Below are positions 13,844 through 58,557 of a stretch of DNA of 64,000 bases, one piece after another (position 1 is the first letter of the stretch; the number at the start of each line of letters is the position of its first letter). The notes below the pieces were generated by a model. It made no database searches and was not told the DNA's origin. It saw only the letters and a program-made list of their open reading frames with translations. A program made the translations under genes and the position numbers. Origin of the DNA: an uncultured bacterium (GTDB taxonomy: Bacteria > JAJVIF01 > JAPKYR01); the NCBI GenBank assembly GCA_965369865.1, contig CBDURU010000004.1, forward strand, positions 7,201 through 71,200, in the 5' to 3' direction.

Positions 13844-14012
13844 GGTTCTTTATGGGATAAAGGATAGCACAATTTCCAACCTGGTGGCATACGATAAACG
13901 TGCAACGAATCCTGCGCATGATTGCGTTGTAGTGTTGCCGTTGCCCATGGAATTTTTTTTTGATTTTTTCGTTTCTCCGCAACAGTCAACAGTCTTTAAT
14001 AGTACGTGTTTG

Positions 14013-14282: not shown

Positions 14283-14436
14283 AGTGTTACTATAGGAAAT
14301 ACATAACCTGTCCCTGTATTTCTTTGCTAAACGCATGTATACTCCTTTGAGCATTTCTTGAGGAGACCACCCATGAAATGCCCCATGCTCTTGATTTTGT
14401 TATCATTTAAAACCACAGGCGTGAAGTATTAAAAAA

Positions 14437-16450: not shown

Positions 16451-16664
16451 CCACTATCCTTCATCCCCCCTTTCCCCTAAAATATCCCTCAATCAACCTC
16501 CTTCTCCCAAGGAGCCCGATACCACTGCCTAAACTCCTCCTCTTCACTTTAACCATCCTCTTCGCGATTACCCTCGCATCCTGCACCGATCGCGCCGGTG
16601 CAAAAAACGATCCGCCATCCAAGGTTGAATAAGCATACGCCGGATGCGCATGTTACATTTGAGG

Positions 16665-35366: not shown

Positions 35367-35400
35367 ACTGACTGAAATAAGGAAGAATTCCTATACCTTT

Positions 35401-36120
35401 CTAACTCAACTCAAACACCAGTGTTATTGACATCGACAAAGTTTCTCGTTCTGTCTCAGGGGGGATTGGATCGAATGGAGCCGCGTTACGGACCGCATTG
35501 ATCGCCGCACTGTCAAGACGATCGAATCCAGACGATGCCGATATCGAAACCGAGGATAATTCCCCGTTGGACGCGACCATAAAATTTATAGTCGCTGTGC
35601 CTGTTTCGCCCAAACGCCGGCTGACCTGAGGGAATTCCTTAGCCGCCTGAATTTTGCTCTTAACCGAAGCGGCATAATCGGCAAGCAATGTATCAATATC
35701 GATTTCAGGTTCCGGTTCAGGAGGTGTTATAGGAATTTCGTCCGAAGAACCATCAATTTCTTCGACGGACACCTGTTCATTTTCCAAATCACCGTTTTGC
35801 ACATCATTTTCTGAAGATTCATCACCGACAGCTTCAGCTTCTATCTCTGTTGCTACCACTTCGGTAACTTCTGTAACTTGATTAACCGGTTCGGGTTCAG
35901 GCTGCGATTGCTCTCGTACCGGCTCTCTTACTGGTTCAGGAGGGATTTCCGGCTCTGGCACTATTGCCGAAGGTTCTGGCTCATTGAGAGTTATCAGAAT
36001 TTCGGTAGTGACCGGTATATTCAGCGTGTCCGGGAGTTTCACCGAAAACAAGAGAATTATGTGCACAAGGATCGAAACAACCAGCAGAACCCATCGCCAA
36101 TTTTTAAACAGTCCAGTCAT
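35401..36120 (-). CDS. tonB: TonB-family energy transducer
   Basis: 239 aa. An N-terminal TM anchor is followed by a Pro/Glu-rich spacer (EPEIPPEPVREPVREQSQPEPEP) and a C-terminal TonB domain. It lies downstream of exbB-exbD. Confidence 0.7.
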   Translation of the reverse strand: MTGLFKNWRWVLLVVSILVHIILLFSVKLPDTLNIPVTTEILITLNEPEPSAIVPEPEIPPEPVREPVREQSQPEPEPVNQVTEVTEVVATEIEAEAVGDESSENDVQNGDLENEQVSVEEIDGSSDEIPITPPEPEPEIDIDTLLADYAASVKSKIQAAKEFPQVSRRLGETGTATINFMVASNGELSSVSISASSGFDRLDSAAINAVRNAAPFDPIPPETERETLSMSITLVFELS

Positions 36121-36128
36121 GTCGCTGT

Positions 36129-36545
36129 TTATTCTTCCTGTGGGTAAATAGTAGCTTCCATCGCTATCCCTGTAATACCAGTCACACGGACAGCGTCCAT
36201 GGCGCGGATGATTTTTTCATATGACGTCGATCGATCCGCTGATATCCTCACAAGATCTATTTCATTTTTTCTTTCAGAGATTCGTGAACTCAGATCGGCC
36301 CATTCGATACGTTCGAGGTCGAGATAAAGGTTCCCCGATTCGGTGATCCTGATAGTCATACTGCGCGCGTCGGTGGAAGTCGCTGTGCTGCTTCCCGGAA
36401 GTGTCAGCTCGAGTGCCGGATTCTGAAAACTCGTCACGAGCATGAAAAAAATCAGGAGGAGAAAAACCACATCGATTAGCGGCGCGATCGGCACTACCGG
36501 TGGACTATAGCCCCTTCTCCTAGAATTTCCCCGACCGGACATCAC
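36129..36545 (-). CDS. exbD: Biopolymer transport protein ExbD/TolR
   Basis: 138 aa. It has a single N-terminal TM (PLIDVVFLLLIFFMLV) and the ExbD periplasmic domain. Confidence 0.85.
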   Translation of the reverse strand: MMSGRGNSRRRGYSPPVVPIAPLIDVVFLLLIFFMLVTSFQNPALELTLPGSSTATSTDARSMTIRITESGNLYLDLERIEWADLSSRISERKNEIDLVRISADRSTSYEKIIRAMDAVRVTGITGIAMEATIYPQEE

Positions 36546-37132
36546 GAACCCGCACCCCCCGGCCGCGATTGCTTCAGGATTCTCGTAAGTGCGCCGTGTA
36601 AATATATTTCCAGGCTTTTAATCCGGCTGTTGAAATAAAGCGCCCCGACAAGTGCCGGGATCGCGACTGTCATCCCGACCGCGGTGGTGATCAGTGCTTC
36701 CCAGATTCCGCCCGCGAGGATGGCTGGATTTACCTGCCCTGCCAGGTCCTGTATACGCTGGAAAGCCTCGATCATGCCGGTGACGGTTCCAAGGAGTCCG
36801 AGGAGCGGCGCGACCTGCGAGATTATTCCGAGCCCGTTTACATAGCGTTCCGATTCGCCCAGGTCTTTTTCGATCGCGATTTCCAGAAGGTCTTTGTCGA
36901 GATTATTTTTTTTAAGGGAATCCGTGAGAGCTTTTGCGAAATGTCCCACGGGTTCGGATTTTACACCGTTCAGGATATTTTCAACCGACGCCTTGATCCG
37001 GGGAATGGTAATCCAGAAATGGATCATGCGATCGAGGAGGAAATAGAGGCCGAGAACCGATAAGAGTAATATCGGCCAGATGAATATTCCTCCCTTGAGG
37101 AGCCAGAGTACCTGTATGTCTGATCCGGACAT
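36542..37132 (-). CDS. exbB: MotA/TolQ/ExbB proton-channel protein
   Basis: 196 aa with three TM segments and the conserved C-terminal TM region (AVGMTVAIPAL). It overlaps exbD by 4 nt. Confidence 0.85.
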   Translation of the reverse strand: MSGSDIQVLWLLKGGIFIWPILLLSVLGLYFLLDRMIHFWITIPRIKASVENILNGVKSEPVGHFAKALTDSLKKNNLDKDLLEIAIEKDLGESERYVNGLGIISQVAPLLGLLGTVTGMIEAFQRIQDLAGQVNPAILAGGIWEALITTAVGMTVAIPALVGALYFNSRIKSLEIYLHGALTRILKQSRPGGAGS

Positions 37133-39829: not shown

Positions 39830-39985
39830 GTCCTTTAATTGTAACGCAGGCAGCTTGCCTGCAGTACCGCGGACAGCTTGTCCTTTAATTGTAACGCAGG
39901 CAGCTTGCCTCCAGTACCGCGGACAGCTTGTCCTTAAATTGTAACGCAGGCAGCTTGCCTGCAGTACCGCGGACAGCTTGTCCGC
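39830..39985. repeat. Three tandem 50 bp direct repeats, each carrying two short hairpins, abutting the alaS start
   Basis: Unit GTCCTTTAATTGTAACGCAGGCAGCTTGCCTGCAGTACCGCGGACAGCTT repeats three times with 2 mismatches in total. Each unit carries hairpins GCAGGCA-GCT-TGCCTGC and GGACA-GCT-TGTCC. A GC-rich inverted repeat (CCTCCCC...GGGGAGG) precedes the array at 39783-39818. Confidence 0.85.
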
Positions 39986-42632
39986 ATCAAAGGAACTAAA
40001 AGTGGAAACATCCAGGCTCAGATCGCTTTTCCTCGACTTCTTCAAGTCAAAGGATCACCACATAGAACCGTCCGCAAGCCTTGTCCCCTCAGCGGATGAT
40101 AAATCGCTTCTGTTAATCAACGCGGGAATGGCGCCGCTCAAGCCTTACTTCACCGGATTGCAGGCACCCCCGTCCACACGTATCGCTTCGTGCCAGCGAT
40201 GTCTTCGCACAAATGACATTGATGAGGTCGGTCGAACACCCCGTCATCTGACCATGTTTGAAATGCTCGGTAATTTCTCCTTCGGCGATTATTTCAAAGA
40301 GGAGATAATCATATGGAGCTGGGAATTTATCACGGACTGGTTGAAAATCCCGGTCGAGAAGCTCAGGATCAGCGTTCACGAAAAAGACGATGAGGCTTTT
40401 TCAATCTGGGAAAAGGAGGTCGGTGTTCGCTCGGACTGGATTTACCGGCTAGGCGACGAGGATAACTTCTGGTTCATGGCCGACACAGGTCCATGCGGGC
40501 CTGACAGTGAAATTTTCTATGACATTGGCGAGGAACTTGGTCCCGACCAGACACCCGCTAAAGATGGGGATCGATGGGTGGAAATCTGGAACCTGGTTTT
40601 TACGCAGTTTGACCGCCAGGCCGACGGAACTCTCGTGCCACTGCCGAAAAAAAATGTCGACACGGGAATGGGTCTTGAAAGAACAGCGATGGCATTGCAG
40701 GGAAAACATTCCGTGTTTGAAGTGGATATATTCAAGCCAATTTCAGACTTTTATAAAACCGAGACTAAAAAGGAAATTCTCGAATCCGAAAGTTATATTT
40801 CGGCTGGTGTTAACTCGCTGTATGTGGTGTCGGACCACATCCGGGCGGTCTCGATGCTCCTCGCGGACGGAGTGCACCCGGGGAACGAGGGCAGGGGTTA
40901 TATACTCCGGAGAATCCTTCGACGGGCGCTTGTCCATTTGCGCCGCCTTGGCCGGCATGAAGGCGGACTTATTAAAGCGTTCCCGATTGTACTCGATCAG
41001 CTTGGGGAAACATATCCACTTTTACTTGAGCGCAGAGACCACATCGCAAATTTAATCCGGCACGAGGAGCAGAATTTCCTGAAAACCCTCGATGCCGGTG
41101 TCCAGCGATTGGAAAATGCGATAGAGAGTGTCGGGGATGAGAAAATCCTGCCGGGTGAAATAGCATTCGAGATGTTCGACACTTACGGCGTCCCGCTTGA
41201 TGTCACAATCGAAATGGCCCAGGCAAGGGGAATGGAAGTCGATGTGGTCAGCTACACTGACGCACTGGAAACCGCACGGAGGATATCCCGCGAGGTCACG
41301 GATGAGACGCTTGACGCCGATAACGCCGCTCGCCAGGCTGTGAAAACCACCGATGAAACTGAATTCATTGGCTATGATTTCTATCGCGAAACGTCATCTC
41401 TCATTGAATTCGATCCCGCGCACAATTTCATCGTAATCGAAAAAACTCCGTTTTATGCCGAAATGGGTGGTCAGACCGGGGATACGGGCGCACTGCGGTT
41501 TAAGGATGGGGAATTCAAAGTTACCGGCACCCAGATTGTCGGCAATGTTGTCGTCCATAAAATCGATCCCGAAAAGACTACCGGCGATCCATCAAATCTG
41601 AAACCCGGCGATCCAATCGAAGCGATTGTCGATATCGATAGAAGGCTTGGAATCCAGAGAGCGCATACCGGGACTCATCTACTTCATGCAGCCTTAAGGG
41701 TTGTCCTTGGCGATCATGTGCAGCAGGCGGGATCGGCGGTCGAGCCGGATCGATTCCGCTTCGATTTCACCCATTTCCAACCGCTTACAAGGGAGGAAAC
41801 CCGAAAAATAGAGGACTGGGCGAACGAGCGGGTATTCGCGGAACATGACGTGTTTACCAGGGATGTTTCGTACGATGATGCGATCGAGGCAGGCGCGATT
41901 GCATTGTTCGGCGAAAAATATCCCGAAACTGTCCGGATGGTCTGGATCGGCGGACGTGAGACTGAGCCAGTTCCAGGGCAGGTTCAATCGACCGAGCTTT
42001 GCGGCGGCACGCATGTAAAAAACACAGGTGTCATCGGGCTGATAAAAATTGTTGGGGAGGAATCGATAGCAAGCGGCGTACGGCGGATCGAGGTTTTGAC
42101 GGGTCGTCGATCGTACGAATTTATGCAGGATGAGGACATGACACTTCATCATATTTCAGACGCGATGCACATGCCCATCCAGCACCTCGAACGCGGGGTC
42201 CGGAAGCATCTCGAAATACAGAAACGCCTGGAGAGGGAAGTCAGGGATCTCGAATCGAAGCTGATTTCAGGTGAGGGCGGCGGAGCGTTCGAAGATTTCA
42301 CATCGGGTGACATTAAAGCCAGGATATACCCGTTACAATCTCTCGCGCCCGATGCGGTCGCGAAATTGCTCGATAAAGCAGTGGAGGAGGATCGGGTTCA
42401 CATCGCGTTCGCTGTCACCGACCATGATGGCAAGGGAACGTTGATGATCCGTTGTTCCGACGAAGCGATAAAAGCCGGACTGCATGCGGGGAATTTCGTG
42501 AAGAAGGTCGCGGGTGCCATGGGGGGCCGTGGTGGAGGAAAGCCGTCATTCGCCCGTGGCGGCGTGGACGCATCCCGCTACGAAGAAGGTTCTCTGGCAT
42601 ACCGCGATGTTTTAACAGGCGGAATTAACTGA
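39978..42632 (+). CDS. alaS: Alanine--tRNA ligase
   Basis: 884 aa. Class II catalytic motifs are near the N-terminus (FLDFFKSKDH, LLLINAGMAPLKPYF). The editing domain has HTGTHLLH and a zinc site (CGGTHV), and the C-terminal DHHA1-like domain is present. The listed start is TTG at 39978 inside the last tandem repeat; GTG at 40002 is an equally plausible start. Confidence 0.9.
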   Translation: MSASKELKVETSRLRSLFLDFFKSKDHHIEPSASLVPSADDKSLLLINAGMAPLKPYFTGLQAPPSTRIASCQRCLRTNDIDEVGRTPRHLTMFEMLGNFSFGDYFKEEIIIWSWEFITDWLKIPVEKLRISVHEKDDEAFSIWEKEVGVRSDWIYRLGDEDNFWFMADTGPCGPDSEIFYDIGEELGPDQTPAKDGDRWVEIWNLVFTQFDRQADGTLVPLPKKNVDTGMGLERTAMALQGKHSVFEVDIFKPISDFYKTETKKEILESESYISAGVNSLYVVSDHIRAVSMLLADGVHPGNEGRGYILRRILRRALVHLRRLGRHEGGLIKAFPIVLDQLGETYPLLLERRDHIANLIRHEEQNFLKTLDAGVQRLENAIESVGDEKILPGEIAFEMFDTYGVPLDVTIEMAQARGMEVDVVSYTDALETARRISREVTDETLDADNAARQAVKTTDETEFIGYDFYRETSSLIEFDPAHNFIVIEKTPFYAEMGGQTGDTGALRFKDGEFKVTGTQIVGNVVVHKIDPEKTTGDPSNLKPGDPIEAIVDIDRRLGIQRAHTGTHLLHAALRVVLGDHVQQAGSAVEPDRFRFDFTHFQPLTREETRKIEDWANERVFAEHDVFTRDVSYDDAIEAGAIALFGEKYPETVRMVWIGGRETEPVPGQVQSTELCGGTHVKNTGVIGLIKIVGEESIASGVRRIEVLTGRRSYEFMQDEDMTLHHISDAMHMPIQHLERGVRKHLEIQKRLEREVRDLESKLISGEGGGAFEDFTSGDIKARIYPLQSLAPDAVAKLLDKAVEEDRVHIAFAVTDHDGKGTLMIRCSDEAIKAGLHAGNFVKKVAGAMGGRGGGKPSFARGGVDASRYEEGSLAYRDVLTGGIN

Positions 42633-46863: not shown

Positions 46864-47247
46864 ATGCCAGAAACCAATGAATTAATCGTACTTTTTATTG
46901 CCATCGCCATGGGCGCGGTTGGCCAGATCGCCATGAAAGCCGGTATGAACCGTGTTAAGGAGAAATCCGGCGGTGATCTCGGCCCTATGATCAAGGCCCT
47001 TCCCAGGATTTTCACCGATATCTATGTCCTTGCCGGGGTAACTATTTATGTGTTGTCGACGGTGCTCTGGTTATGGGTTCTTTCGAAAGTGCCACTCTCG
47101 TTCGCTTACCCGTGCATCAGCATCAGTTATATCATCATCATTATTGCAGGAAAGTGGGTATTTAAAGAACGGATCGATAAATGGAAAATCGCGGCGATCG
47201 TGCTGATCCTGCTCGGAGTCGCGGCGTTAGGATTGAGTGAAATATAA
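46864..47247 (+). CDS. Small 4-TM DMT/SMR-like membrane protein (half-transporter A)
   Basis: 127 aa with four predicted TM helices, EamA/SMR-like. It overlaps the next gene by 1 nt. Confidence 0.55.
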   Translation: MPETNELIVLFIAIAMGAVGQIAMKAGMNRVKEKSGGDLGPMIKALPRIFTDIYVLAGVTIYVLSTVLWLWVLSKVPLSFAYPCISISYIIIIIAGKWVFKERIDKWKIAAIVLILLGVAALGLSEI

Positions 47248-47672
47248 TGGCCTCCACTCCCGAAACAGCAGGGAAAACAGCATCAATAACGATGGTAATT
47301 TTCATCATCTCGATGGTGTTCCTGGCAGGTGTTGGGCAATTATTCATTAAATATGGGGTGAATCAGGTCACCGATCAAATCGGCCATTTCCCAACCGACC
47401 CGGTGGGATTCATTAAACTTGTTTTCTTCTGGCCGGTATTCTCGGGACTGTGCATCTATTTCTTCTTCGGTATGGCATGGTTGAAAATACTCGCCGATGT
47501 GCCGGTTAGCTTTGCATTCCCTTTTCTTGCGATCAGTTATATCGTGATAATTATTGGAAGCTACTTGTTCCTTGGCGAGAATATAAACATCCTGAAACTA
47601 TTCGCTATTGCGCTCATAATTATGGGTGTAATCTGCCTCTCCCGTTCCGATACAACCCAGGCCGCAACGTAA
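47247..47672 (+). CDS. Small 4-TM DMT/SMR-like membrane protein (half-transporter B)
   Basis: 141 aa with four predicted TM helices, a paralog of the preceding gene. The pairing resembles ArnE/ArnF or paired SMR heterodimers. Confidence 0.55.
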   Translation: MASTPETAGKTASITMVIFIISMVFLAGVGQLFIKYGVNQVTDQIGHFPTDPVGFIKLVFFWPVFSGLCIYFFFGMAWLKILADVPVSFAFPFLAISYIVIIIGSYLFLGENINILKLFAIALIIMGVICLSRSDTTQAAT

Positions 47673-47874: not shown

Positions 47875-50040
47875 GTGTCCGGATCAAATAACTTATCCCT
47901 GCTTCTGGCATCAAACAATGATTCGCTTGCAAACGAATTAATTGATGCCGGTTTAAATATCTCCCGCAGTAGCGACGGTTTCGAAACTATCCGCATGGCC
48001 ATTGAATCGAACCCGGACGCGGTTATCCTTGACTGTAAAAACAATGGGCTTCCACCTCCTTCAGTGGCAATCTGGTTAAAACTGAACCCATCGACTCATT
48101 CACTCCCTGTCATAGGTTTAAACGGAGGTGAAATGTTCTGGCAGGAGGCTGTGATCGATGCGGAAATTCCGTATGGCGATTCAATCGACAAACTTGTCTC
48201 GATCACAGAAGAACTGGTCAGAAACAAACGTGTGCTCAGTGATCAGGATAAAAACGAGATAATTCAGAATTTTGATCCATTGGATATAACCCTGGACCTT
48301 ATTTCAACCTACCGGGAACGTCTCGGGCTGGCAAGTGCCATGATCGAGCTCGCAAGCCTTCAGCATGACCTTGGCGATTTCGAATACACGATTAAGTCAA
48401 TTCTTGAGGTGACCGGACATGCAATTGGAAGCAAGCTGGTAGCCCTTACGCTTATTCGAGAGCGTTCGCATTATATCCTGGTGCGCGGTAACGATTCCTG
48501 CGATTCAGATCTGGTAAAGCTCGAGGATTATTCCTTATCGAGACTAAACGAGTATATGGACAAACCGGTTGAAATTGACGACCAACTGGTTTTTGGACGT
48601 CGCAAGGTTAATAAAAATGCCGGGAATCCTGAGATTGAATGTAATTTTTTCGGGCATCCGATTTATTCAAGCGGTAAAACCCTCGGCTACCTGTCAGGTA
48701 TAATCGAAAACGATCATTCCACACAATATCTATATGATGGACTGCTTTCCGATCTGACCGCTCAAATCGCGCTTTTACTTGTTAACACCGAACTGATCGA
48801 AACACACGACAGCTATGTAGGTGAACTTTCGAAGGTGCTTCGAGCGGTCGTTGAGGTTTCAAGTATCAGCCCCCTGTCGGAAACCACATCGAAGGGCTTT
48901 CTCCTTCAGTTTCTCCTGATCGTTCTCGAACTCTGTAACACAAACAAGGGTTGCGTAATTCTTTACGATTCGGAAAGTGAGGAGATAGAAGATGTCGCCG
49001 CGCTTGGGGTGGAAGAGAATGAGATTCTCTCGTCCCGTATGGACCTTGGGAAGAGCCTCATAGAAACTCTACCGGAGTTGCCGAAATCGGAAGTTCATAT
49101 CGACACGGCAAATCTGGGGCACGGAAGAATATCCAGGCTTGTTGTGCCGCTTGCCGCAGGTGAGAAAATTATGGGCGGACTGGTTGTTCTTGGATTCCCG
49201 CTCAATTTAAGTCCCAGGATCATCAAGTCGGTTACCACACTGGCGACGCTGGCAGGGTACTTCCTCGACAATCGTGCCCTCCATCAACACAGTATAAAAA
49301 CATCGATTATGGAGGACCAGCTTAAGTTCGCCAGGGAAATCCAACTGGAAATGTTGCCCGACGGTAATCCCGAGTACCCCGGTTACGATATTTTTGGATG
49401 CAGTATTCCCGCTAAAGAAGTGGGGGGAGATTTCTTCGATTACCTGCGGCAGGACGGTCTACTGGGTATTTCGGTCGCGGATGTGTGTGGAAAAAGCATA
49501 CCCGCAAGCCTTTTAATGACAATGACACGTGCTCTCGTGCTCTCGGCATCCGAGTCTCGCGATCATCCCAACGAGGTCATGCAGTCGGTTAATGCACTGC
49601 TCACCCGGATAATTACCAGGGGTAAATTCGTGACGAGTTCGTTACTTTATATCTCTAAGGATAATATCGATTACGCGTCCGCAGGACACCAGCCTCTTCT
49701 TGTTTACCGCGCCGCAAATGATGAATTTGAAGAGATCGATCCCGATGGAGTAGCACTTGGAATTGTTGAGCATATGGATTTTGAACACGTCAATTTTAAG
49801 ATGAACGGCGGGGATATTGCCCTGATGTTCACTGACGGGCTTAACGAGGCAATGAACTCGAAGCGCGAGCAGTTCGGATACGAAAATATACGCACTATTA
49901 TCCGATCAAACTCGGCAAAAGGGGCGCAGGAGATTGTGGATACATTATTTAATGCCATCAGGAACCATGCCGGTGGCGCAGATCAGTTCGACGATACCAC
50001 TATTGTGATTATAAAGAAAATCAAAGAAGGGAATGAATGA
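47875..50040 (+). CDS. Receiver-like domain / GAF / PP2C (SpoIIE-RsbU family) serine phosphatase
   Basis: 721 aa from a GTG start. It has an N-terminal CheY-like segment (AVILDCK), central GAF-like regions, and a C-terminal PP2C domain (VGGDFFDYL, ISVADVCGKSIPASLLM, FTDGLNEA, QFDDTTIVI). Confidence 0.75.
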   Translation: MSGSNNLSLLLASNNDSLANELIDAGLNISRSSDGFETIRMAIESNPDAVILDCKNNGLPPPSVAIWLKLNPSTHSLPVIGLNGGEMFWQEAVIDAEIPYGDSIDKLVSITEELVRNKRVLSDQDKNEIIQNFDPLDITLDLISTYRERLGLASAMIELASLQHDLGDFEYTIKSILEVTGHAIGSKLVALTLIRERSHYILVRGNDSCDSDLVKLEDYSLSRLNEYMDKPVEIDDQLVFGRRKVNKNAGNPEIECNFFGHPIYSSGKTLGYLSGIIENDHSTQYLYDGLLSDLTAQIALLLVNTELIETHDSYVGELSKVLRAVVEVSSISPLSETTSKGFLLQFLLIVLELCNTNKGCVILYDSESEEIEDVAALGVEENEILSSRMDLGKSLIETLPELPKSEVHIDTANLGHGRISRLVVPLAAGEKIMGGLVVLGFPLNLSPRIIKSVTTLATLAGYFLDNRALHQHSIKTSIMEDQLKFAREIQLEMLPDGNPEYPGYDIFGCSIPAKEVGGDFFDYLRQDGLLGISVADVCGKSIPASLLMTMTRALVLSASESRDHPNEVMQSVNALLTRIITRGKFVTSSLLYISKDNIDYASAGHQPLLVYRAANDEFEEIDPDGVALGIVEHMDFEHVNFKMNGGDIALMFTDGLNEAMNSKREQFGYENIRTIIRSNSAKGAQEIVDTLFNAIRNHAGGADQFDDTTIVIIKKIKEGNE

Positions 50041-50819
50041 AAATGGCTGCAACCAAAACATCAAGGAAAAAAATCAGGAAAAGTACAACTCGAAAAAGTA
50101 CCGGAATTAAGAAATCGACAACGGTTAAGACTGTCGGAAAAAAATCCCGCACTAAAAAAACTACTTCAGGAACCAGGGCAAAATCATCCAACACTAAAAT
50201 TACAGCGACCCGCCCTGATGTTGTTGGACTTCCGGAACAGGATAAACACCTCGTTGGGAATGTACTCAACACCGAAACAACTCCTGGGATTATTCCGGAG
50301 TTGCCGATAGAGCCTGAACCACGCACCGACATTTCGATCGACCGGATCGCGTCAGAGATCTCGAGCACTGACACTGACTTCGGAAAAGGGTCGGAGCTGA
50401 ATACCGGGACAACCTCACAGGAAACCATGGTTACTGCGATTCTCCCTGATGGCGGTTTCGATATCAGCCGTAAGGTCCTTGCGCGAATCGCATCACTGGC
50501 CGCGAATGAGATCGATGGTCTCCTCCCTCCGCGCAACGATGCGTTTATTAAATTGATCGATTCTATGCATGGACGCACCGACGGCATAAAGGTCAATGTC
50601 GGGTCGACTGAAGCCGCGGTCGATATGCATATCCGTGTGCAATATGGAACCCATATCCCCGATGTGACCGAACGCCTTCGCGAAAACATCACCAGGCGTA
50701 TTCATCAAATGACCGGTCTCAAAGTCACGGAAATCAACATAAGGGTCCAGGATGTGACAACGGCGGATGATCCTCAGCCTGAAAAAACTGCCGGTGATCG
50801 GCATGCAACTGCTTTGTAG
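50037..50819 (+). CDS. Asp23/Gls24-family (DUF322) protein with a Lys/Thr/Arg-rich N-terminal tail
   Basis: 260 aa. The C-terminal half (ISRKVLARIASLAANEIDGL...EINIRVQDV) matches the alkaline-shock-protein-23 family. The first about 70 aa are highly basic (KKIRKSTTRKSTGIKKSTTVKTVGKKSRTKKTTS). The start overlaps the upstream stop (ATGA). Confidence 0.6.
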   Translation: MKMAATKTSRKKIRKSTTRKSTGIKKSTTVKTVGKKSRTKKTTSGTRAKSSNTKITATRPDVVGLPEQDKHLVGNVLNTETTPGIIPELPIEPEPRTDISIDRIASEISSTDTDFGKGSELNTGTTSQETMVTAILPDGGFDISRKVLARIASLAANEIDGLLPPRNDAFIKLIDSMHGRTDGIKVNVGSTEAAVDMHIRVQYGTHIPDVTERLRENITRRIHQMTGLKVTEINIRVQDVTTADDPQPEKTAGDRHATAL

Positions 50820-50865: not shown

Positions 50866-53800
50866 ATGGGTAAATTTACAAAAATATGCAGCATCGGATC
50901 AAACTGGATCTCAATCCTGAGATCCAGTAAGAACAGCATGCTTTTCGTAATGGTGATCGCCTGTTTTTCCCTGCTGTTGTATTCAGGTATCGTTTACTTC
51001 TCAACAACCAACCGGGTCATGGAACGACAGGTTATTAACCTTGCCATTTCAAGCCTGGTTGCGACTCTCAGCAACGCCTATCCCTCAGCGATTAACAGTT
51101 TCGCCGCCGGTTCCAGCAATATTGAGGTTATTGAATCCCTGCAGAATCCTGCAGCCGATCACACCAACGCTGACCATTTCATCCCTTTCATCCTGATCGG
51201 TAATATGGAAATCATCGGTGGAAGTAATCTTCCCAATCATATAGAGGCCGACCTGGTGAAGGTTTTAAGTGCGGACCCTTTTTCCCGGAACCGATTCCCG
51301 TTGGGTGATGAATATGCCGATTCATACATTGTGAAATCAGGCAGAGGTCTGTTTGTTGCAGTAGTCTCACCGGTTACCGAATCCGGCGTGCGGATCGGTT
51401 TGCTGCGCGATATCAAATACCTGCTTTCCTTCGCAGGAAAAATCGAACGTGCTCTTATCGGTTACATGGTCCTGGCTTATCTGGTGTTAATGGTACTCCT
51501 CGTCATTGTACTAAAGATTATCACAAAGCCCCTGGTAACCCTCACCGCTGCCGCAGAGCGTTATGCTAAAGGGGATTTTGATTTCACTGTAGCTGTCCAA
51601 ACCGGTGTCACTGAAATGATAATACTGACCGACGCGTTCAATCGCATGGGAGAAGAGCTTAAACTCCAGCATCAATCGCTCGAGGCGTATTCCAACAAGC
51701 TTGTCGAAGCGAATCGCAAGGTGAGTTCGGTAGTTGAAAAACTCAGCATTCGGAATTCTGAACAACAGGTGATGATCGAAGCATCCCTTAAGGCCAATAA
51801 GCTTGCAACGTCCAATGACGTGGTCAGGATGATGATGGAGCTGCTGAGGGATAATCTCAATCTGGAACACCTTGTTTATTTCCTTGAAAATGAAAATGAA
51901 GAATTAATTCCAATGGCTTATCCATGGCTAACTGATCCAGACATGGATACGATAGATGAAAAAACATTTAATGCGGTAAAAGCCTGCCTGGATACCCTCG
52001 AACCACAAATTGTCCCGGCTGTCCGGGAGGGAGCGTTCCATCTTAATATGTTAAGCGACAAGCTCTATATTCCTGTCTCAAATATACTTGGCAGACTGGG
52101 GGTACTTGAACTCACTTCCGACATTGGAAAATCATTCGATCCTGAGACTCAACAGTTCTGCATGCATTTTATTACCCACATGGAAGTAATTATCAGGAAC
52201 AAATCCCTGTACCATGAGACAATTCGAAGGAGCCACGAACTCGAACGAATCAACCAGATCTCTCAGGCAATTTCCGGAAAGCTTGATATGGAGCCGCTTA
52301 TCAGGGATGTTGTCGAATACACCGAGAGCACTATCAAGGCCGATTGTGCATTCGTAGGGCTTATCGTGAGATCCAGGCTTGAAATTATGCATATACAGCC
52401 CGATGTACCGGGTATCGAATCCTGGGCCGTGGATATTGATAAGAATAATATAATTTCCACAATCGTGAATTCGGCTCAGGAGCTGCTTATCAGCGATATC
52501 CATGATAGCGTGGATTATTTCGATGAAATAAACAGCCCTTTCATCAAAGCTAATGGTTTTAATTCAATTATTGGCTGTCCGATTCTCAACAAGGGCCAGG
52601 TTACCGGTGTTATCTGTGGATTTTCACACAAAACCAACGCGTTCACATCAAGCGACGCCTATTTCCTTGGCCTTCTGGCAAGCCAGGTTGCCATCGCACT
52701 GGAGAATGCCAGGTTGTTTGATGAGATTCTGACTCGAGACAAACGAAGGGATCATCAGCTCAAGATGGCTCAGAAACTCCAGGCTGACCGAATGCCGGCC
52801 TTCTTCAAGCAGAATGTCGCCGCGGTAAGCTGTGAACTTCAGCCTGCCGATGAGCTTGCCGGTGATTTCTGTGATGTATTCTCTCTGGGTCGTCACTCGA
52901 TTGCCATTGTTATCGGTGACGTTGCCAATAAGGGTGTTGCCGCAAGCCTGATGACATTCAGCATTCTCTCCATGTTCAGAAACGTTGCTAAAACCCTTAA
53001 ACCCCCATGCGATATCCTCGACACGATTAACCGTTCACTGATCGGTCAGGTCAAAGAGGAAGGCTGGTTCGCCACAGCTTTTTACGGTAAGCTAAACACA
53101 AATACAGGCACTTTCACGTACTCTTCGGCAGGACACGAGCAGCCGATCTGGTATCATGCCGATACCGGTGAAGTTGAGAAACTTGATGTTGAGGGTTATC
53201 CGCTTGGACTCTTCAAGTGCTTCACCTATGAAACCGGCGAATTTGTATTGAAAAAGGGTGATCGGATCGTTTTTTATACCGATGGGGTCACTGACGCGGT
53301 CGATGAAAATAATAAGCGTTTCGGCCACCATAGACTGCTTGGTTTTGTCGCTGACAGTGGACATCTTTCAGCCGAGGAATTCACCTCAACCCTGGTAAGG
53401 AAGGTCGAAGAATTTACAGGGGGACGTAAGCAGAAAGACGATATAATCGTTTCGATGCTGGAAATGCAGGAGGACCCCTGGATACATAAGTCAGTTAAAT
53501 TCTCGGAATCCGCCCAGCTTATACAGGACATCCTCGACGGGCTTGCCCCATATGAGCTTTCTCCTGAAGAAACTTATTCGATCCGCCTCGCGATTGATGA
53601 AGCCCTTGCAAATGCCTGGAAGCACGGACTCAATGAGGATGATCAGGCACCATTCAAAGTCAGTTACCTTATCGCAGATGAAGGATTCAGGATTCGGGTC
53701 ACAGATCCCGGTTCCGGTTTCGATCACGAAAGCCTGCCTGATCCGACCGTTCCCGAAAACCTGTATAAGGCCAACGGACGGGGCGTGTTCCTCATCCGCC

Positions 53801-54039
53801 AGATGATGGATGAAGTCGAATATAACAGTAATGGCAACGAAATTTCCGTAATGAAACGATTTGTGCCATCTGATGACCGCGGAGAGGGAACCTACGATGA
53901 CCTTGTCCTGCCTGCCAGGCTTGACATCGTTAAACAGCGGTCGTCCCTTGACAAGGCTAAAACCGCAGAAGCTTCCAATGAAGATGAGGTTTCGGAAGCT
54001 GATAAAGCTGATAATATTGTCAAGCCCCAATTCGATTAA
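50866..54039 (+). CDS. Membrane HAMP / GAF / PP2C phosphatase / HATPase_c (RsbW-SpoIIAB-like kinase) fusion protein
   Basis: 1057 aa. It has an N-terminal TM, a periplasmic segment, a second TM and a HAMP domain (TLTAAAERYAKGDFDFTV). GAF-like regions follow, then a PP2C domain (AGDFCDVF, IGDVANKGVAASLM, YTDGVTDA). The C-terminus is a GHKL ATPase of the anti-sigma-factor type (ALANAWKHG...DPGSGFD...GRGVFLIRQMMDEVEY). Confidence 0.75.
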   Translation: MGKFTKICSIGSNWISILRSSKNSMLFVMVIACFSLLLYSGIVYFSTTNRVMERQVINLAISSLVATLSNAYPSAINSFAAGSSNIEVIESLQNPAADHTNADHFIPFILIGNMEIIGGSNLPNHIEADLVKVLSADPFSRNRFPLGDEYADSYIVKSGRGLFVAVVSPVTESGVRIGLLRDIKYLLSFAGKIERALIGYMVLAYLVLMVLLVIVLKIITKPLVTLTAAAERYAKGDFDFTVAVQTGVTEMIILTDAFNRMGEELKLQHQSLEAYSNKLVEANRKVSSVVEKLSIRNSEQQVMIEASLKANKLATSNDVVRMMMELLRDNLNLEHLVYFLENENEELIPMAYPWLTDPDMDTIDEKTFNAVKACLDTLEPQIVPAVREGAFHLNMLSDKLYIPVSNILGRLGVLELTSDIGKSFDPETQQFCMHFITHMEVIIRNKSLYHETIRRSHELERINQISQAISGKLDMEPLIRDVVEYTESTIKADCAFVGLIVRSRLEIMHIQPDVPGIESWAVDIDKNNIISTIVNSAQELLISDIHDSVDYFDEINSPFIKANGFNSIIGCPILNKGQVTGVICGFSHKTNAFTSSDAYFLGLLASQVAIALENARLFDEILTRDKRRDHQLKMAQKLQADRMPAFFKQNVAAVSCELQPADELAGDFCDVFSLGRHSIAIVIGDVANKGVAASLMTFSILSMFRNVAKTLKPPCDILDTINRSLIGQVKEEGWFATAFYGKLNTNTGTFTYSSAGHEQPIWYHADTGEVEKLDVEGYPLGLFKCFTYETGEFVLKKGDRIVFYTDGVTDAVDENNKRFGHHRLLGFVADSGHLSAEEFTSTLVRKVEEFTGGRKQKDDIIVSMLEMQEDPWIHKSVKFSESAQLIQDILDGLAPYELSPEETYSIRLAIDEALANAWKHGLNEDDQAPFKVSYLIADEGFRIRVTDPGSGFDHESLPDPTVPENLYKANGRGVFLIRQMMDEVEYNSNGNEISVMKRFVPSDDRGEGTYDDLVLPARLDIVKQRSSLDKAKTAEASNEDEVSEADKADNIVKPQFD

Positions 54040-54148
54040 TAATTCCCAACTGGCCAACCTGGGTGGTAAATAAAAATTCTCAAACATCGATGTTCAGGGG
54101 ATTTAATGTTGTTAGAGGTGTTTCATGCTGCTATAATCGCTCTGAACA

Positions 54149-55603
54149 TTGGGAGGACCCGTTATTATGAACAGGTATCTTACCTACCAGGAAGGGGAGT
54201 TCCTCTTCGAAGATGTAGCCTTGAGCGAGATCGCGGAAGAAATGTACACTCCGTTCTACGTGTACTCCAAGGCGGCGATATTTGAAAAAGTTGAGGCCTT
54301 CAAGCAGGCTTTTAACGATGTAAAGCCCATGATGACTTTCAACATGACGGCTCTCGACACCACGTTGATCCTGAAAATGCTGCAGGAGCGTGGATGTTCC
54401 CTCGCTGTCTCGAACCTGTCGGAGCTGAAACGGGCTATCGCCATCGGCTTCCCGCCAACATCAATCATTTTTAACTCATGCGGTGTCGCGGATCACGAAA
54501 TATCCGACCTCCTTAAAATCAAACCATTAATAATAAATGTCAGCAGTATTTTTGAGCTCGAACCTCTCAATACGTTTGGTGTAAAACTGGACACTGGCGT
54601 CAGGGTCGGGCTCAGGATCAATCCTGGAATAGATGTCGGAGGACTGGAAGGCGCGAACTCAGGCGCATCCGACAGCCGCGTCGGCATACAGAAAAATGAG
54701 TTAGATCTCGCGCTGGCTATGATCGAAAAATTTCCGCAGCTTAATTTTGTGGGGATCGCCTGCGACTTGGGCAGCCAGGTTGCCACACTCGCCCCCTGGA
54801 TCAAAATGTCCCAGGACATGGCCGCTCTCTACAAGGAAATTAAAAATAAGGGGCATAATCTCGAATACCTCAACCTCGGTGGTGGATTCCCCGCAGCTTA
54901 CAAGGATGTCGATTACCTTGAAATAAAGAAAATCGCGCGGAATATTATCCCCCATGTGGAGGATATCGAGTGTTGTATCGTTCTACAGCCTGGACGATAT
55001 TTCACCGCTGAATCAGGGGTTCTGGTTACTTCCGTGCTTGGTGTAAAGGAAGCCGGTGCTAAAAAGTTCATCATCTGCGATGCTGGATTTTCCGAGTTTC
55101 CACGTTCCGCTCTGTACCGGATAAACCATGAAATCGTACCGGTCAAAGAACCCGCTGCTCCCATACCTGAACAAGCGTCCGCATTCGGAATTGGCGGAGA
55201 TTCGACAGATCCTGTCGATGCAGCTACCGGCATGCACGATCCGGGTGAAATAATGGACCGTTCTGAATTGCCCGGTGAAGATGCGGTTGCCCCCCTGGCC
55301 GCGGAGCAGACCGAAGTCCCCTCAACTCCCGGTGACGCGGAAACGGTCCAACTGGTAGGGCCGGGTTCCGATGGACTTGATTATCTCGCCAGGGATGTCG
55401 AGATGTTTATTCCCGAAAGAGGCGACCTGCTTGCTGTCCTGAATGTCGGCGCCTACGGCAGGACGATGTCGAATAATTTAGAGTCAAGGCTCAAGCCCCC
55501 TGAAATTTTGATCGAACGGGATAAGTTTGAACTCATCAGGGAACGCGAAGTAACCGACGACCTGATTGGTCTTGACCTTGAAGAAAGCGGCATCGAGGTT
55601 TAG
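54149..55603 (+). CDS. Fold-type III PLP-dependent decarboxylase homolog (LysA/ODC family) with divergent active-site motifs and a C-terminal insertion
   Basis: 484 aa. A TIM-barrel N-terminal domain (TPFYVYSKAAI) is followed by DLGSQ, GGGFP and a beta-sandwich C-terminal domain (GAYG, GPGSDGLD). The low-complexity insert PAAPIPEQ...AETVQL sits before the GPGSDGLD motif. Confidence 0.65.
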   Translation: MGGPVIMNRYLTYQEGEFLFEDVALSEIAEEMYTPFYVYSKAAIFEKVEAFKQAFNDVKPMMTFNMTALDTTLILKMLQERGCSLAVSNLSELKRAIAIGFPPTSIIFNSCGVADHEISDLLKIKPLIINVSSIFELEPLNTFGVKLDTGVRVGLRINPGIDVGGLEGANSGASDSRVGIQKNELDLALAMIEKFPQLNFVGIACDLGSQVATLAPWIKMSQDMAALYKEIKNKGHNLEYLNLGGGFPAAYKDVDYLEIKKIARNIIPHVEDIECCIVLQPGRYFTAESGVLVTSVLGVKEAGAKKFIICDAGFSEFPRSALYRINHEIVPVKEPAAPIPEQASAFGIGGDSTDPVDAATGMHDPGEIMDRSELPGEDAVAPLAAEQTEVPSTPGDAETVQLVGPGSDGLDYLARDVEMFIPERGDLLAVLNVGAYGRTMSNNLESRLKPPEILIERDKFELIREREVTDDLIGLDLEESGIEV

Positions 55604-55688: not shown

Positions 55689-56564
55689 CTACTTTTCTGG
55701 CTTCAGAACTTTTTTAACGCTTGAATACGCCATAAACCCGGTAATTACGATCGTTATTAACATTACCAGGATGACTAGAAGAATATCAATTACTGGTATT
55801 CCACCAGATACAAGGAGACTATATAATCCTGCCCAATTAACAAGAACAACGTTAATAAACCAGAATATAATCCCAATGCATCCAAAAATTATGTAACTCA
55901 AGATTACATTCCTGAATCTAAGGCTCGTGAAGATCGCCAGCAATGCGTAACTTACCATCAGACCCACATGGACCAGGAGAGAAACGGATAACTGGAATGG
56001 ACCAGGCCCGGGCAGGCAGAATATAAACGGATTGTGTGCATAAAAAGCAGATATGCTGTAAAACAGCCGGGCAACCAACGTTACTGTCGGATAAATGGCA
56101 AACGATATCATCTGCAAAACTACCAGGGATTTAAATCCGTCCATTGGGTTTTGACTGATAAGATTGAGCTTCCCGCTGTCCGCATCATGCCTCATAAGTA
56201 ACCGTCCCGGCCAGTGAAGTATCCAGATCGCGTAGAGAAATCCTGCAAACAGCACAAAATATATAGGTGTCAATCCGGGTGCAAGCCGGCTCAGGGGATT
56301 AATGTAGATAGGATTGCCCTGCGTTCCATAAATATAGATCGCCGGAAGGATGATCAGGTAGATCAGCTCGAAAATGAGACCGGTATTTCTGACAGGTTCG
56401 TCTTCGATCATTTTTCTGGCCAGAATCGACAGGAACGGATCCTTGCTCCGGCTTATCAACCTGAGCAATTGAAGGCGTGGTGAAAATCTCGCTAACCCTG
56501 TAAGTTCAATTTCCGAAATACCGGAGGTTTGACTCACAGTGGAGTCGGATTGTGTAGTTACCAT
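55689..56564 (-). CDS. Hypothetical polytopic membrane protein
   Basis: 291 aa with about 7 hydrophobic helices. No family was recognised. Confidence 0.45.
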   Translation of the reverse strand: MVTTQSDSTVSQTSGISEIELTGLARFSPRLQLLRLISRSKDPFLSILARKMIEDEPVRNTGLIFELIYLIILPAIYIYGTQGNPIYINPLSRLAPGLTPIYFVLFAGFLYAIWILHWPGRLLMRHDADSGKLNLISQNPMDGFKSLVVLQMISFAIYPTVTLVARLFYSISAFYAHNPFIFCLPGPGPFQLSVSLLVHVGLMVSYALLAIFTSLRFRNVILSYIIFGCIGIIFWFINVVLVNWAGLYSLLVSGGIPVIDILLVILVMLITIVITGFMAYSSVKKVLKPEK

Positions 56565-56662
56565 CGTCCTTTTTCCCTTCCAATCTCCACATATTCAAAG
56601 GCTTCAGTATACTACCAGACCTGAGTAACCTTCCCAGGAATGAAATATTACTACTATTTCAG

Positions 56663-57565
56663 GTGCTAAAGCAAAAAGCTTTGTATAATAAAGTGACTAT
56701 GGGAACGGTTGAGGTTTCAAAATTCGCTTTTAAACCTGTACAAAAAAGTTCCGGCAGTGAATCTCCGTCGCGGGTGATTTTCAACTATGCATACCGTCGA
56801 ATCTGGTCGGGTAATGGACTCTGGATTTTCGAGACCGTCCTGTGGTGCCTTGCTGGTGCTTATGTCGCGTTCTGGATTTTCGATCTCACAAGTTATCTGC
56901 TCGATTCAATTTTAGAATCTGTCTGCCGGGGCGGTTTACCGGCATTAACGCCGATCATTATCGGCATCGCTATTTATAAGGCTCAGGTGAATATCGGAAC
57001 GGGAGATGAGTCGCTGAGAGGAGTGCCTTTGAGGGGATATCAGGTCGTGGGTCCGAGGTTCCTGGCGGTATTTTTAACTTGGTTACAGATAATGGCACCT
57101 ATGGTGGTGGTTTTAATCGTTATCATTCTGGGTATGATTTCAGAAACTACCTACTTTTCCTATAATCCCATTCCGGTTTTTTCTATGAGTTACATTTTCA
57201 TCACATGGATCGCCGGCGATAATATTTTTGCAAACATCTCGAATTCTGTCCATACAGGTGAAATAACTCCAGTAGTTATTCTCTTTTTACAGGCCCTTGG
57301 GTGGGGGCTAGTACCCATCTCCTGGGGATTGATCTGGGCTACGGTCTACCAGCGACATGGAGGACCGTTCCTGCTAGCCTTTCTCCTTTACCTCCTTATC
57401 CCGGCGGTATATTTCTCTGCCATTTACTGGAATGTTTTTGGGTCATATTACGAAGATCAATCCCTGTTCTGGACATTAGTTTATATATACGTGTTTGGAT
57501 TTTTACTCCTTGCGGCACTTTTTTTCCGAATAGCCTGCACTTTATGGGACAGGAGGTCTGGATGA
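56663..57565 (+). CDS. Hypothetical polytopic membrane protein
   Basis: 300 aa with multiple TM helices. Its stop overlaps the next start (ATGA). Confidence 0.45.
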   Translation: MLKQKALYNKVTMGTVEVSKFAFKPVQKSSGSESPSRVIFNYAYRRIWSGNGLWIFETVLWCLAGAYVAFWIFDLTSYLLDSILESVCRGGLPALTPIIIGIAIYKAQVNIGTGDESLRGVPLRGYQVVGPRFLAVFLTWLQIMAPMVVVLIVIILGMISETTYFSYNPIPVFSMSYIFITWIAGDNIFANISNSVHTGEITPVVILFLQALGWGLVPISWGLIWATVYQRHGGPFLLAFLLYLLIPAVYFSAIYWNVFGSYYEDQSLFWTLVYIYVFGFLLLAALFFRIACTLWDRRSG

Positions 57566-58557
57566 GAAGGTTACGGTTTCTGGTCCCGCTGTTTTTATTT
57601 ATTGTTTGCATCTCTGTTGCTTTTGCTAATGTTGTGAGCAGGCGCCAGGCTGTAAGGAGGATGTTCAATGATGCAGGCAGGGATGGGAATCCGGTATTAT
57701 TTTTCCAGAACAAGAACCAGTATCCAATCGAGAATTATTTGGCTTCGTTAGGCCACCGACCTATTAAGCTATTCACTAGAAGCATGGGACAATCTTTGTG
57801 GGTGCTATTTTTTTCATCAAATGGAGCCTTACATATGGTTAGTGAAATGCCAGTTATCGATACTTATGAGCACTGGACAATCAATTTTCCCGAAATCCAC
57901 TCAATCAGGGATGATGAATGGGGGTCAGACTTTTTATGGAGATTCCCTGATGCAGGTGTACCCCTTACCGGTTCAACCCACCAGCAAATTATCTCGGCTG
58001 GTTTAGACCACTATCGAATCCTAGATCTTGAAAGCGGTAAATACACATCCAGTGATTTTGTAAGTCCAAGACCGAGGTCGACATCTCAGTATAGCTTAGG
58101 TGAATCCAAGCTCAGTCCAGATGGTAGGTACATCATCACCCGGGCATTGTACTCCACAGATTTATGGAATATATGGAAATATGACATTCAGGAAGGTGTG
58201 TGGACTAATATTATCGAAGAACAGAACGGTTACATTCTAAATGTGGGTCCTGAAGCCAAAATTATAGGCCTTGGAAATTTCAGAACCAGCCCGGAATATA
58301 CAGTATTTTTCGATGGACTAACCGGGGAAGCCATTCACACAGTCCAGAACAGTACCACTTCATTTATTGGTGAAAGGTGGATTGTATGCCAGCCATACCC
58401 GAGAAAGAGTGATTTAATATTTATTGACATGGAAGATAACTGGAAGGAATACCGGATTACACTCCCAACCGATAACGTTTTAAGAATGGCTGTATACATA
58501 CCCCCGCCGGGCGGGATTGAGGAAATGCTTCGTATGCGTCAAGAAGCGCAGGAATGA
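57562..58557 (+). CDS. Secreted hypothetical protein, possibly beta-propeller (TolB/PD40-like)
   Basis: About 331 aa from the ATG at 57562, which is preceded by AGGAGG. The signal peptide is MRRLRFLVPLFLFIVCISVAFA. It is lower in GC than its neighbours. The listed ORF 57301-58557 has an unlikely N-terminal extension that overlaps the upstream gene. Confidence 0.45.
   Translation: MRRLRFLVPLFLFIVCISVAFANVVSRRQAVRRMFNDAGRDGNPVLFFQNKNQYPIENYLASLGHRPIKLFTRSMGQSLWVLFFSSNGALHMVSEMPVIDTYEHWTINFPEIHSIRDDEWGSDFLWRFPDAGVPLTGSTHQQIISAGLDHYRILDLESGKYTSSDFVSPRPRSTSQYSLGESKLSPDGRYIITRALYSTDLWNIWKYDIQEGVWTNIIEEQNGYILNVGPEAKIIGLGNFRTSPEYTVFFDGLTGEAIHTVQNSTTSFIGERWIVCQPYPRKSDLIFIDMEDNWKEYRITLPTDNVLRMAVYIPPPGGIEEMLRMRQEAQE

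Follow-up and report, generated by a model that had tools for sequence, protein, structure and literature searches.

A probable pseudoenzyme with the fold of diaminopimelate decarboxylase, encoded beside a conserved signalling cluster in an uncultured bacterium

We analysed a 64,000-nucleotide stretch of DNA from an uncultured bacterium (contig CBDURU010000004.1 of assembly GCA_965369865.1, positions 7,201 to 71,200; hereafter the window) and, within it, a gene on the plus strand at 54167-55603 whose product is related to diaminopimelate decarboxylase (DAPDC; LysA). Judged by its sequence, the protein is very probably not a diaminopimelate (DAP) decarboxylase. Replaced catalytic residues, strong conservation and constant signalling neighbours together make it most likely a former enzyme that now acts as a non-catalytic partner, and we put the probability that it is a DAPDC-derived pseudoenzyme serving as the non-catalytic partner of a Ser/Thr phospho-signalling module at about 0.5. 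The more tentative half of this reading, which we place slightly below evens, is the role as a partner in the adjacent module; it draws on synteny and on features of surface and charge.

An initial annotation, made from the DNA sequence alone, had proposed an inactive regulatory paralogue. That proposal gains support from the drift of the catalytic columns across 25 syntenic orthologues, the rest of the protein being under purifying selection. The same annotation had likened the protein to antizyme inhibitor, a comparison of which the pseudo-decarboxylase part stands and the kinship does not: the window protein derives from DAPDC and not from ornithine decarboxylase (ODC), so the likeness is only an analogy.

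The protein is predicted to have the DAPDC fold

Both Pfam domains of the Orn/DAP/Arg decarboxylase superfamily (fold-type III) are found in the protein above their gathering thresholds: PF02784 (Orn_Arg_deC_N; 3e-34, 118.9 bits against a cut-off of 23.4) and PF00278 (Orn_DAP_Arg_deC; 9e-17, 61.5 bits against a cut-off of 23). The top NCBIfam model is that of lysA, TIGR01048, which falls just short of its cut-off (295.5 against 297.9 bits) with a match that comes in two pieces, split by an insert in the β-domain. The closest relatives of solved structure are DAPDCs, led by the Aquifex enzyme (2p3e; 4e-65 by phmmer). ODC structures reach only about 1e-9 in the same comparison with Protein Data Bank (PDB) sequences, and antizyme inhibitor about 3e-4.

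An AlphaFold2 (AF2) model built from a 118-sequence alignment shows a (β/α)8 barrel and a β-domain and is confident except at residues ~334-390, with a predicted local distance difference test score (pLDDT) of 88.2 and a predicted template modelling score (pTM) of 0.84. It supersedes an earlier model from 25 clade sequences alone, for which pLDDT was 65 and the β-domain poor. Foldseek matches the model to the DAPDCs of H. pylori, Aquifex and Brucella at E ~1e-43, with target-normalised template modelling (TM) scores of 0.92-0.94; for 3c5q and 2p3e the E value is 2e-43 and the normalised score 0.94. As modelled, the fold is that of DAPDC, and the Pfam, PDB and AF2/Foldseek matches bear out the fold-type III architecture of pyridoxal 5′-phosphate (PLP)-dependent decarboxylases that had been read from the sequence.

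The window protein has the two-domain fold of LysA (EC 4.1.1.20; TIGR01048; 2p3e, 3c5q/2qgh, 3vab, 2yxx), to which it is 25-35% identical, and it retains the GGG loop, the Ser of GSQ, the Arg of PGR, the Asp of DAG and the Tyr of GAYG. Unlike LysA, it is without the Schiff-base Lys, the Asp and Glu that contact the pyridinium nitrogen, the stacking His and the Cys-Glu pair; it carries an acidic insert of ~60 residues, predicted to be disordered; no lysine-pathway genes lie alongside; and the pattern of constraint in its clade is rewired.

Six invariant active-site residues are replaced

The roles of the active-site residues can be read from TmDAPDC, the enzyme of T. maritima. There the internal aldimine is formed by Lys46, probably also the general acid; Asp65 and Glu246 hold the pyridinium nitrogen protonated, Asp65 partnering the Lys as well, and His179 stacks onto the PLP ring. 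Ser182 and Tyr343 contact the phosphate, the distal carboxylate is held by Arg249 and Arg285, and Glu315, from the partner subunit, recognises the distal amino group, the Cys314/Glu315 loop going into the active site of the other subunit (PMC8277567). All these residues, and Cys314 with them, are invariant across the 92 canonical DAPDCs that we aligned with MAFFT as a comparison set; the clade of the window protein was represented by 25 members. Six of the canonical-invariant residues are replaced in the window protein, in phmmer and MAFFT alignments alike. The gene and the codons concerned are as follows, residues being numbered on the 478-residue protein (adding six converts to the 484-residue open reading frame, ORF, of the initial annotation).

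54167-55603, plus strand: coding sequence of the DAPDC-fold putative pseudoenzyme, 478 residues, starting MNRYLTYQ
54347-54349, plus strand: Thr61, at the position of TmDAPDC Lys46; K in 92/92 canonical enzymes, K19 R4 T1 E1 in the clade
54404-54406, plus strand: Ala80, at the position of TmDAPDC Asp65; D in 92/92 canonical enzymes and 0/25 of the clade
54764-54766, plus strand: Asp200, at the position of TmDAPDC His179 (HxGSQ); H in 92/92 canonical enzymes
54986-54988, plus strand: Gln274, at the position of TmDAPDC Glu246 (EPGR); E in 92/92 canonical enzymes, E22 S2 Q1 in the clade
55367-55372, plus strand: Ser401-Asp402, at the position of TmDAPDC Cys314/Glu315 (GPxCExxD); C and E in 92/92 canonical enzymes

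The remainder of the pocket is partly intact. Retained in the window protein are Gly238-240 of the GGG loop, Ser203, Arg277, Arg313 (itself variable in the clade, R in 19/25), Asp405 and Tyr430. Scored over nine signature residues, the window protein keeps 3/9 and the best clade member 7/9. Elsewhere in the clade the lost positions are occupied by a striking range of residues: E10 A8 T2 K2 S2 G1 at the Asp65 column, nine different residues at that of His179 (H9 S6 D2 Q2 N2 and one each of G, C, R and A) and eight at that of Cys314 (G9 D4 S3 W3 E2 N2 C1 A1).

These alignments confirm every substitution that had been read from the sequence. DLGSQ stands in place of HxGSQ (His to Asp200), QPGR in place of EPGR (Glu to Gln274), and GPGSDGLD lacks the catalytic Cys of GPxCExxD (Cys to Ser401, with Glu to Asp402), whereas GGGFP and GAYG are both kept. 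The PLP-binding Lys, at first called ambiguous, can now be called absent: the lysine of AxKAN aligns with Thr61 (FNMTALD). The Lys of DVKPM sits eight residues upstream of Thr61, ahead of strand β2, and is not homologous to the PLP lysine. We also ran the comparison that had been named as able to overturn the assignment, an alignment that would restore Lys, His, Glu and Cys; sequence and profile alignments together with the confident structural match restored none of the four. A register shifted by an indel is rejected, since GSQ, PGR, GP..D and GAYG flank and anchor each position.

Catalytic columns drift in a clade under purifying selection

The window protein belongs to a small and discrete clade. 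Its match list holds ~27 clusters at 90% identity (P0001-P0027), 461-503 residues long and 50-100% identical, and then breaks sharply, from at least 50% identity in the clade to at most 33% for ordinary DAPDCs of 410-430 residues. In an exhaustive profile search of 1.84 billion representatives at 50% identity the whole clade amounted to one cluster (843 bits) and one fragment; the next matches scored 372 and 309 bits, and the canonical continuum began at about 285 bits. All members come from metagenomes or metagenome-assembled genomes (MAGs). Eight species-representative genomes carry the gene, four labelled Planctomycetota and the others only 'bacterium', and the locus L012 (DAOVJF01) matches the window at 97% identity. 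Orthologues are named 'hypothetical protein' by PGAP and 'diaminopimelate decarboxylase' by JGI/IMG (P0010, P0017-P0022, P0390, P0395).

Within this clade the active site has lost its constraint. Mean entropy over 16 active-site columns is 1.00 bit, no different from random column sets (P=0.72), against 0.03 bit for the same columns in canonical enzymes (P<5e-5), and the His and Cys columns lie at the 98th percentile of variability among columns outside the insert. The segments from which constraint has been lost (residues 81-89, 160-171, 201-202, 311-322 and 397-409) are all active-site loops, and the conservation profiles of clade and canonical enzymes correlate weakly (Spearman 0.18). Drift is visible even among close relatives: in the sublineage of at least 92% identity, position 61 flips between Thr and Ala and position 401 between Ser and Pro.

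The gene as a whole is under purifying selection. The ratio of nonsynonymous to synonymous substitution rates (dN/dS) is 0.10 against a 97%-identical relative (196 codons, dS 0.13), and of all the genes in the cluster this one is the most conserved (57-74% identity; neighbours, 42-63%). Drifting catalytic columns under purifying selection are the signature of a pseudoenzyme and not of gene decay. We use the operational definition of a pseudoenzyme as a homologue without conserved catalytic residues that is nevertheless under selection; in this clade catalytic residues are missing, their positions are unconstrained among orthologues, and selection is purifying.

Constraint has shifted to a lysine-rich surface and an acidic insert appears

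What the clade conserves appears, from sequence comparison, to have moved away from the active-site loops to a lysine-rich surface. Unusual conservation is found at residues 1-21 (N-terminal β-strands), 35-45 (barrel helix α1), 253-270 (helix α8 and the next strand) and 449-455 (C-terminal strands). Helices α1 and α8 are neighbours in the barrel and the β-domain adjoins them, so from barrel topology these segments plausibly form one surface. Nine lysines are near-invariant in the clade (35, 41, 46, 53, 117, 254, 255, 265 and 453), at columns that in canonical enzymes hold mostly acidic or neutral residues; taken whole, the protein is very acidic (mean net charge -25). Lys35, a column with K in 25/25 of the clade and 0/92 canonical sequences, is found at the C-terminal end of β1, on the catalytic face of the barrel.

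The insert lies in the β-domain, where canonical enzymes have a short turn:

55148-55345, plus strand: acidic insert rich in A, P, E, G and D, residues 328-393, between two β-domain strands, predicted to be disordered

As delimited it is 66 residues long, about 58-60 more than in canonical enzymes, which matches the Pro/Glu/Ala-rich insertion of 60-70 residues first noticed ahead of GPGSDGLD. Residues A, P, E, G and D account for 64% of the insert, which has a net charge of -14 and a pLDDT below 50 at residues 336-388. Length is held at 64-70 residues in 24/25 clade members and the net charge, from -1 to -16, is always acidic; the anchors AF, P, VA, DPGE, P and G are conserved and the rest of the insert sequence is variable. 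Conserved length and anchors within variable sequence are typical of a functional disordered loop, as this insert may be. None of the 92 canonical sequences has the insert, nor does the sister group of the clade.

A conserved signalling cluster precedes the gene

The gene stands last in a block of genes on one strand, in the order EamA-EamA-PP2C-Asp23-receptor-pseudoenzyme, at every locus with enough flanking sequence. Synteny holds in 17/17 loci, 13 found from the pseudoenzyme gene and four independently from the receptor gene, and in all 17 the receptor gene adjoins that of the pseudoenzyme. More distant proteins that combine PP2C and HATPase_c_2 domains (at most 37% identity) have no pseudoenzyme gene alongside; the nearest non-orthologous one is at locus L024. 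In the window the block is as follows.

46864-47672, plus strand: pair of small EamA-type half-transporter genes that open the block, the second at 47247-47672; the start of the first is approximate
47875-50040, plus strand: PP2C (SpoIIE-domain) protein, 721 residues, conserved in the cluster
50037-50819, plus strand: Asp23-family protein with a basic Ser/Thr/Lys-rich N-terminal extension; 4-nucleotide ATGA overlap with the preceding PP2C gene
50866-54039, plus strand: membrane receptor with a transmembrane segment, an external domain of ~145 residues, a second transmembrane segment, HAMP, GAF, PP2C (SpoIIE) and HATPase_c_2 domains and an acidic C-terminal tail

The receptor has 1057 residues (gene callers start it slightly downstream, giving 1033), and its SpoIIE and HATPase_c_2 domains score 162.5 and 90 bits in Pfam. 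The stop codon of the PP2C gene and the start codon of the Asp23 gene overlap in the ATGA at 50037-50040, which suggests translational coupling. In the 11/11 loci read, the N-terminal extension of the Asp23 protein is 90-145 residues long and its Ser/Thr/Lys-rich first ~60 residues carry a charge of +7 to +22, opposite to that of the pseudoenzyme insert. The Asp23 family is annotated as cell-envelope related. The 721-residue PP2C protein has an N-terminal region of ~520 residues without a Pfam match, in which there is one weak hydrophobic segment (residues 422-440).

Among the ORFs of the 64-kb window, Pfam finds no second decarboxylase, lysine-pathway gene, STAS protein or sigma factor. No Rfam family reaches its gathering threshold in the 64 kb, be it tRNA, riboswitch or small RNA, and the window therefore holds no lysine riboswitch. 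Downstream of the block, at 55689-58557, lie three unannotated multi-transmembrane or hydrophobic genes (291 residues on the minus strand, 300 and ~337 residues on the plus strand), for which neither a Pfam match nor, at the equivalent place in related loci, a detectable homologue was found. These membrane genes were considered as part of the system and excluded, not being conserved in other loci. At other loci an unannotated convergent gene of ~308 residues lies downstream of the pseudoenzyme gene.

The cluster resembles partner-switching modules (RsbU/RsbW/RsbV and SpoIIE/SpoIIAB/SpoIIAA) in having PP2C and RsbW/SpoIIAB-type HATPase_c_2 domains, here fused in one receptor. Unlike those modules, it lacks a STAS antagonist and a sigma factor, neither being present anywhere in the 64-kb window, and its conserved companions are a decarboxylase-fold protein and an Asp23 protein.

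A sister group with a partly degenerate active site

The nearest relatives of the clade are eight clusters (P0121, P0270-P0275 and P0028) at 36.5% identity. Their proteins have 414-417 residues and no insert and are 63-100% identical among themselves. Their active site is degenerate in part: Asp65 is never Asp, the His column reads H4 Y2 N2, the Cys column S4 P2 A Y and the Glu315 column G3 D3 E2, and the PLP Lys is kept in 8/8. The sister-group protein may be a second pseudoenzyme, or else an unusual LysA that still works. Window clade and sister group share the change of Asn48 to Leu, the loss of Asp65 and Cys314, a variable His, the N-terminal signature EEMYTPFYVYS and basic residues of α1, including K35 in 6/8 sister clusters; K53, K117, K254, K255 and K453 of the window clade are not found in the sister group. 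The two groups were jointly monophyletic in 200/200 neighbour-joining bootstraps, both on long branches.

Downstream of every sister-group gene come an aspartokinase-like AA_kinase+ACT gene and a DUF362 gene (loci L014-L019 and L029-L034, for example L015:1743-2993, L018:593-1837 and L032:10001-11254). These loci often lie beside an arsenic-resistance-like set of SBF/ACR3, LMWPc, ArsR-type HTH and methyltransferase genes. Because the degeneracies, the signature and the α1 basic residues are common to both groups, which the neighbour-joining trees unite, erosion of the active site probably began before they split, in a gene adjoining lysC, and the window clade then probably acquired its insert, further lysines and a new genomic setting. 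One assembly, ERZ25746724, holds both gene types, on contigs with a tetranucleotide similarity of r=0.73; sister-type and window-type genes come from the same study series, with different visible MAG accessions.

Gene start, upstream signals and the rest of the window

An ORF does exist at 54149-55603 on the plus strand, as first reported. Its in-frame TTG at 54149 gives the 484-residue reading; the true start is most likely ATG 54167, because a GGGAGGA lies upstream of it, all 25 clade members start MNRYLTYQ and gene callers choose it. Two upstream signals were read from the sequence:

54109-54137, plus strand: promoter-like TTGTTA-17-TATAAT with an upstream TG, a consensus match only (10/12), inside the 127-bp gap 5′ of the gene
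54151-54157, plus strand: Shine-Dalgarno-like GGGAGGA, 9 nucleotides 5′ of ATG 54167

Promoter-like sites are not enriched in the region, 16 being found where shuffling gives 15.5.

The window is otherwise ordinary chromosome, with glycogen genes (5827-10179), an H+-pyrophosphatase (18635-20971), an AddAB-like helicase-nuclease pair (21275-28079), ExbB-ExbD-TonB (35401-37132) and AlaRS (39978-42632). GC content, ~0.48-0.52 in most of it, dips at 14001-16500 (0.39) and at 32001-36000 (0.36-0.42). The first dip contains an N6/N4 DNA methylase (14437-15315) and an adjacent 382-residue ORF that Pfam does not recognise, and the two may be a restriction-modification pair; the second contains ORFs of 220 and 927 residues without Pfam matches (31921-35366). 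Both regions may be horizontally acquired islands.

Weighing the interpretation

Several observations weigh against a non-catalytic signalling partner. The PLP Lys is kept in 19/25 clade members and the Glu of EPGR in 22/25, and there is little loss from the GGG loop, Ser and Tyr that contact the phosphate, so that PLP or a different phospho-ligand might still be bound by some of them. Lys35, on the catalytic face, could in principle be a relocated lysine. The features that tie the protein to signalling are solely those of synteny, surface and charge. Finally, a 127-bp gap and a promoter-like site of its own precede the gene, so that co-transcription with the cluster is only a possibility.

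A first alternative is that the protein is a dead paralogue that controls a real DAPDC by forming a heterodimer, as an antizyme inhibitor, prozyme or dominant-negative subunit would. DAPDC is an obligate dimer in which each active site is built from both subunits, the Cys-Glu loop being donated by the other one (PMC8277567), so a heterodimer would lack an intact site. Lysine synthesis would thereby be throttled and meso-DAP spared for peptidoglycan, for example under an envelope stress sensed by the neighbours, and the cell-envelope annotation of Asp23 suits such a role. The fold is fully retained in the AF2 model and its Foldseek matches, antizyme inhibitor is a distant structural relative, and dead paralogues that control active ones are known (PMC3663545). 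The interface loops on which dimer and active site depend (residues 160-171 and 397-409) are, however, among the segments that have lost constraint, and the invariant link is to signalling genes, with no lysine-pathway gene in the block. We regard control by heterodimer as unlikely.

Altered chemistry, which the initial annotation had also raised, stays in play because Lys35 is invariant in the clade. The protein would then bind PLP through Lys35 or, in most members, through Lys61, or would carry out a PLP-independent reaction on a substrate related to signalling. The position of Lys35 at the end of β1 is compatible with this, as are the GGG loop, Ser203, Tyr430, Arg277 and Asp405, which are mostly kept along with Lys61 and Glu274, and the pseudoenzyme literature warns of relocated catalytic residues (PMC10211241). 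Yet an enzyme of any chemistry is hard to reconcile with active-site columns conserved no better than random ones, with a His, Asp and Cys that are lost and hypervariable, or with a position 61 that flips between Thr and Ala in the window sublineage at a dN/dS of 0.10. Lys35, moreover, belongs to a helix-long stretch of new conservation and to a set of nine lysines, which suggests a surface and not a single catalytic residue. A new enzyme activity is, on this evidence, improbable.

The old pocket might instead serve a non-catalytic ligand sensor, binding meso-DAP, lysine, a D-amino acid or a muropeptide fragment and reporting to the PP2C/HATPase_c_2 receptor encoded next door in 17/17 loci. 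Contacts to the substrate are largely kept (Arg277 in 24/25, Glu or Asp402 in 24/25, Asp405 and Tyr430 in 23/25 each), but the second carboxylate-binding Arg (R in 19/25) and the neighbouring Tyr (Y in 17/25) vary, segment 311-322 has lost constraint, and the pocket overall shows no excess conservation. The odds of a ligand sensor are low for these reasons. A decaying pseudogene or annotation artefact without function, to which lost catalytic residues and a low-complexity insert might point, is ruled out for practical purposes by intact ORFs of conserved length in ~27 lineages, the conserved length of the insert, the confident fold, a dN/dS of 0.10 and the highest conservation in the cluster.

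How a non-catalytic partner might act

If the protein is a non-catalytic signalling partner, it would be a protein-binding adaptor, target or output subunit of the Ser/Thr phospho-signalling module, itself similar to systems for partner switching and envelope stress. Its contacts would be mediated by the newly conserved surface and the acidic loop. One possible contact is the basic, phosphorylatable tail of the Asp23 protein; another is the kinase-like HATPase_c_2 domain, which has no STAS substrate encoded nearby.

A more specific version, which we consider a long shot, makes the pseudoenzyme the missing partner or output of a partner-switching system without STAS protein, with phosphorylation-dependent binding to HATPase_c_2 or to the Asp23 tail and a coupling to LysA or meso-DAP. 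The acidic loop and the lysine-rich surface would then bind reversibly, as set by the kinase-like domain against the two PP2C phosphatases, and residual affinity for LysA or meso-DAP would let envelope stress influence how meso-DAP is shared between lysine and peptidoglycan.

Analogues and significance

Animals provide the classic pseudoenzyme of the ornithine/DAP decarboxylase fold, antizyme inhibitor (AZIN1; 3btn, 4zgz). It too is a fold-type III decarboxylase homologue kept for non-catalytic regulation; it arose from eukaryotic ODC and acts by binding antizyme. The window protein matches it at about 3e-4 and differs in being closest to bacterial DAPDC (4e-65), in its insert, which AZIN does not have, and in the bacterial PP2C/HATPase_c_2/Asp23 cluster in which its gene sits. 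The descent from ODC that marks the antizyme inhibitor family is not found (DAPDC 4e-65, ODC about 6e-10), and antizyme binding is implausible in a bacterial context. In prozymes, such as that of trypanosomatid deoxyhypusine synthase (PMC3663545), a catalytically dead paralogue activates or controls its active partner. They are likewise dead paralogues of an oligomeric enzyme kept under selection, but of another fold and another kingdom, and there is no sign that the window protein pairs with an active DAPDC. Our full-text literature searches turned up neither a DAPDC-derived pseudoenzyme nor this gene cluster. The concept was already familiar from antizyme inhibitor and the prozymes; what is new is the lineage from which this protein arose, its insert and its signalling context.

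The consequences hold within the limits of an uncultured lineage, a small family and an inferred function. If the protein is a pseudoenzyme, the label 'diaminopimelate decarboxylase' given by JGI would wrongly credit uncultured Planctomycetota MAGs with lysA in metabolic reconstructions. The clade, together with the sister group found next to an aspartokinase-like gene, would form a graded natural series of active-site decay in the fold of an essential enzyme. The PP2C/HATPase_c_2/Asp23 cluster would be an unexplored module whose conserved companion is a former enzyme and not a STAS protein. Were the system without STAS protein to operate as outlined above, it would be the first signalling module in bacteria to be organised around a pseudoenzyme derived from a decarboxylase.

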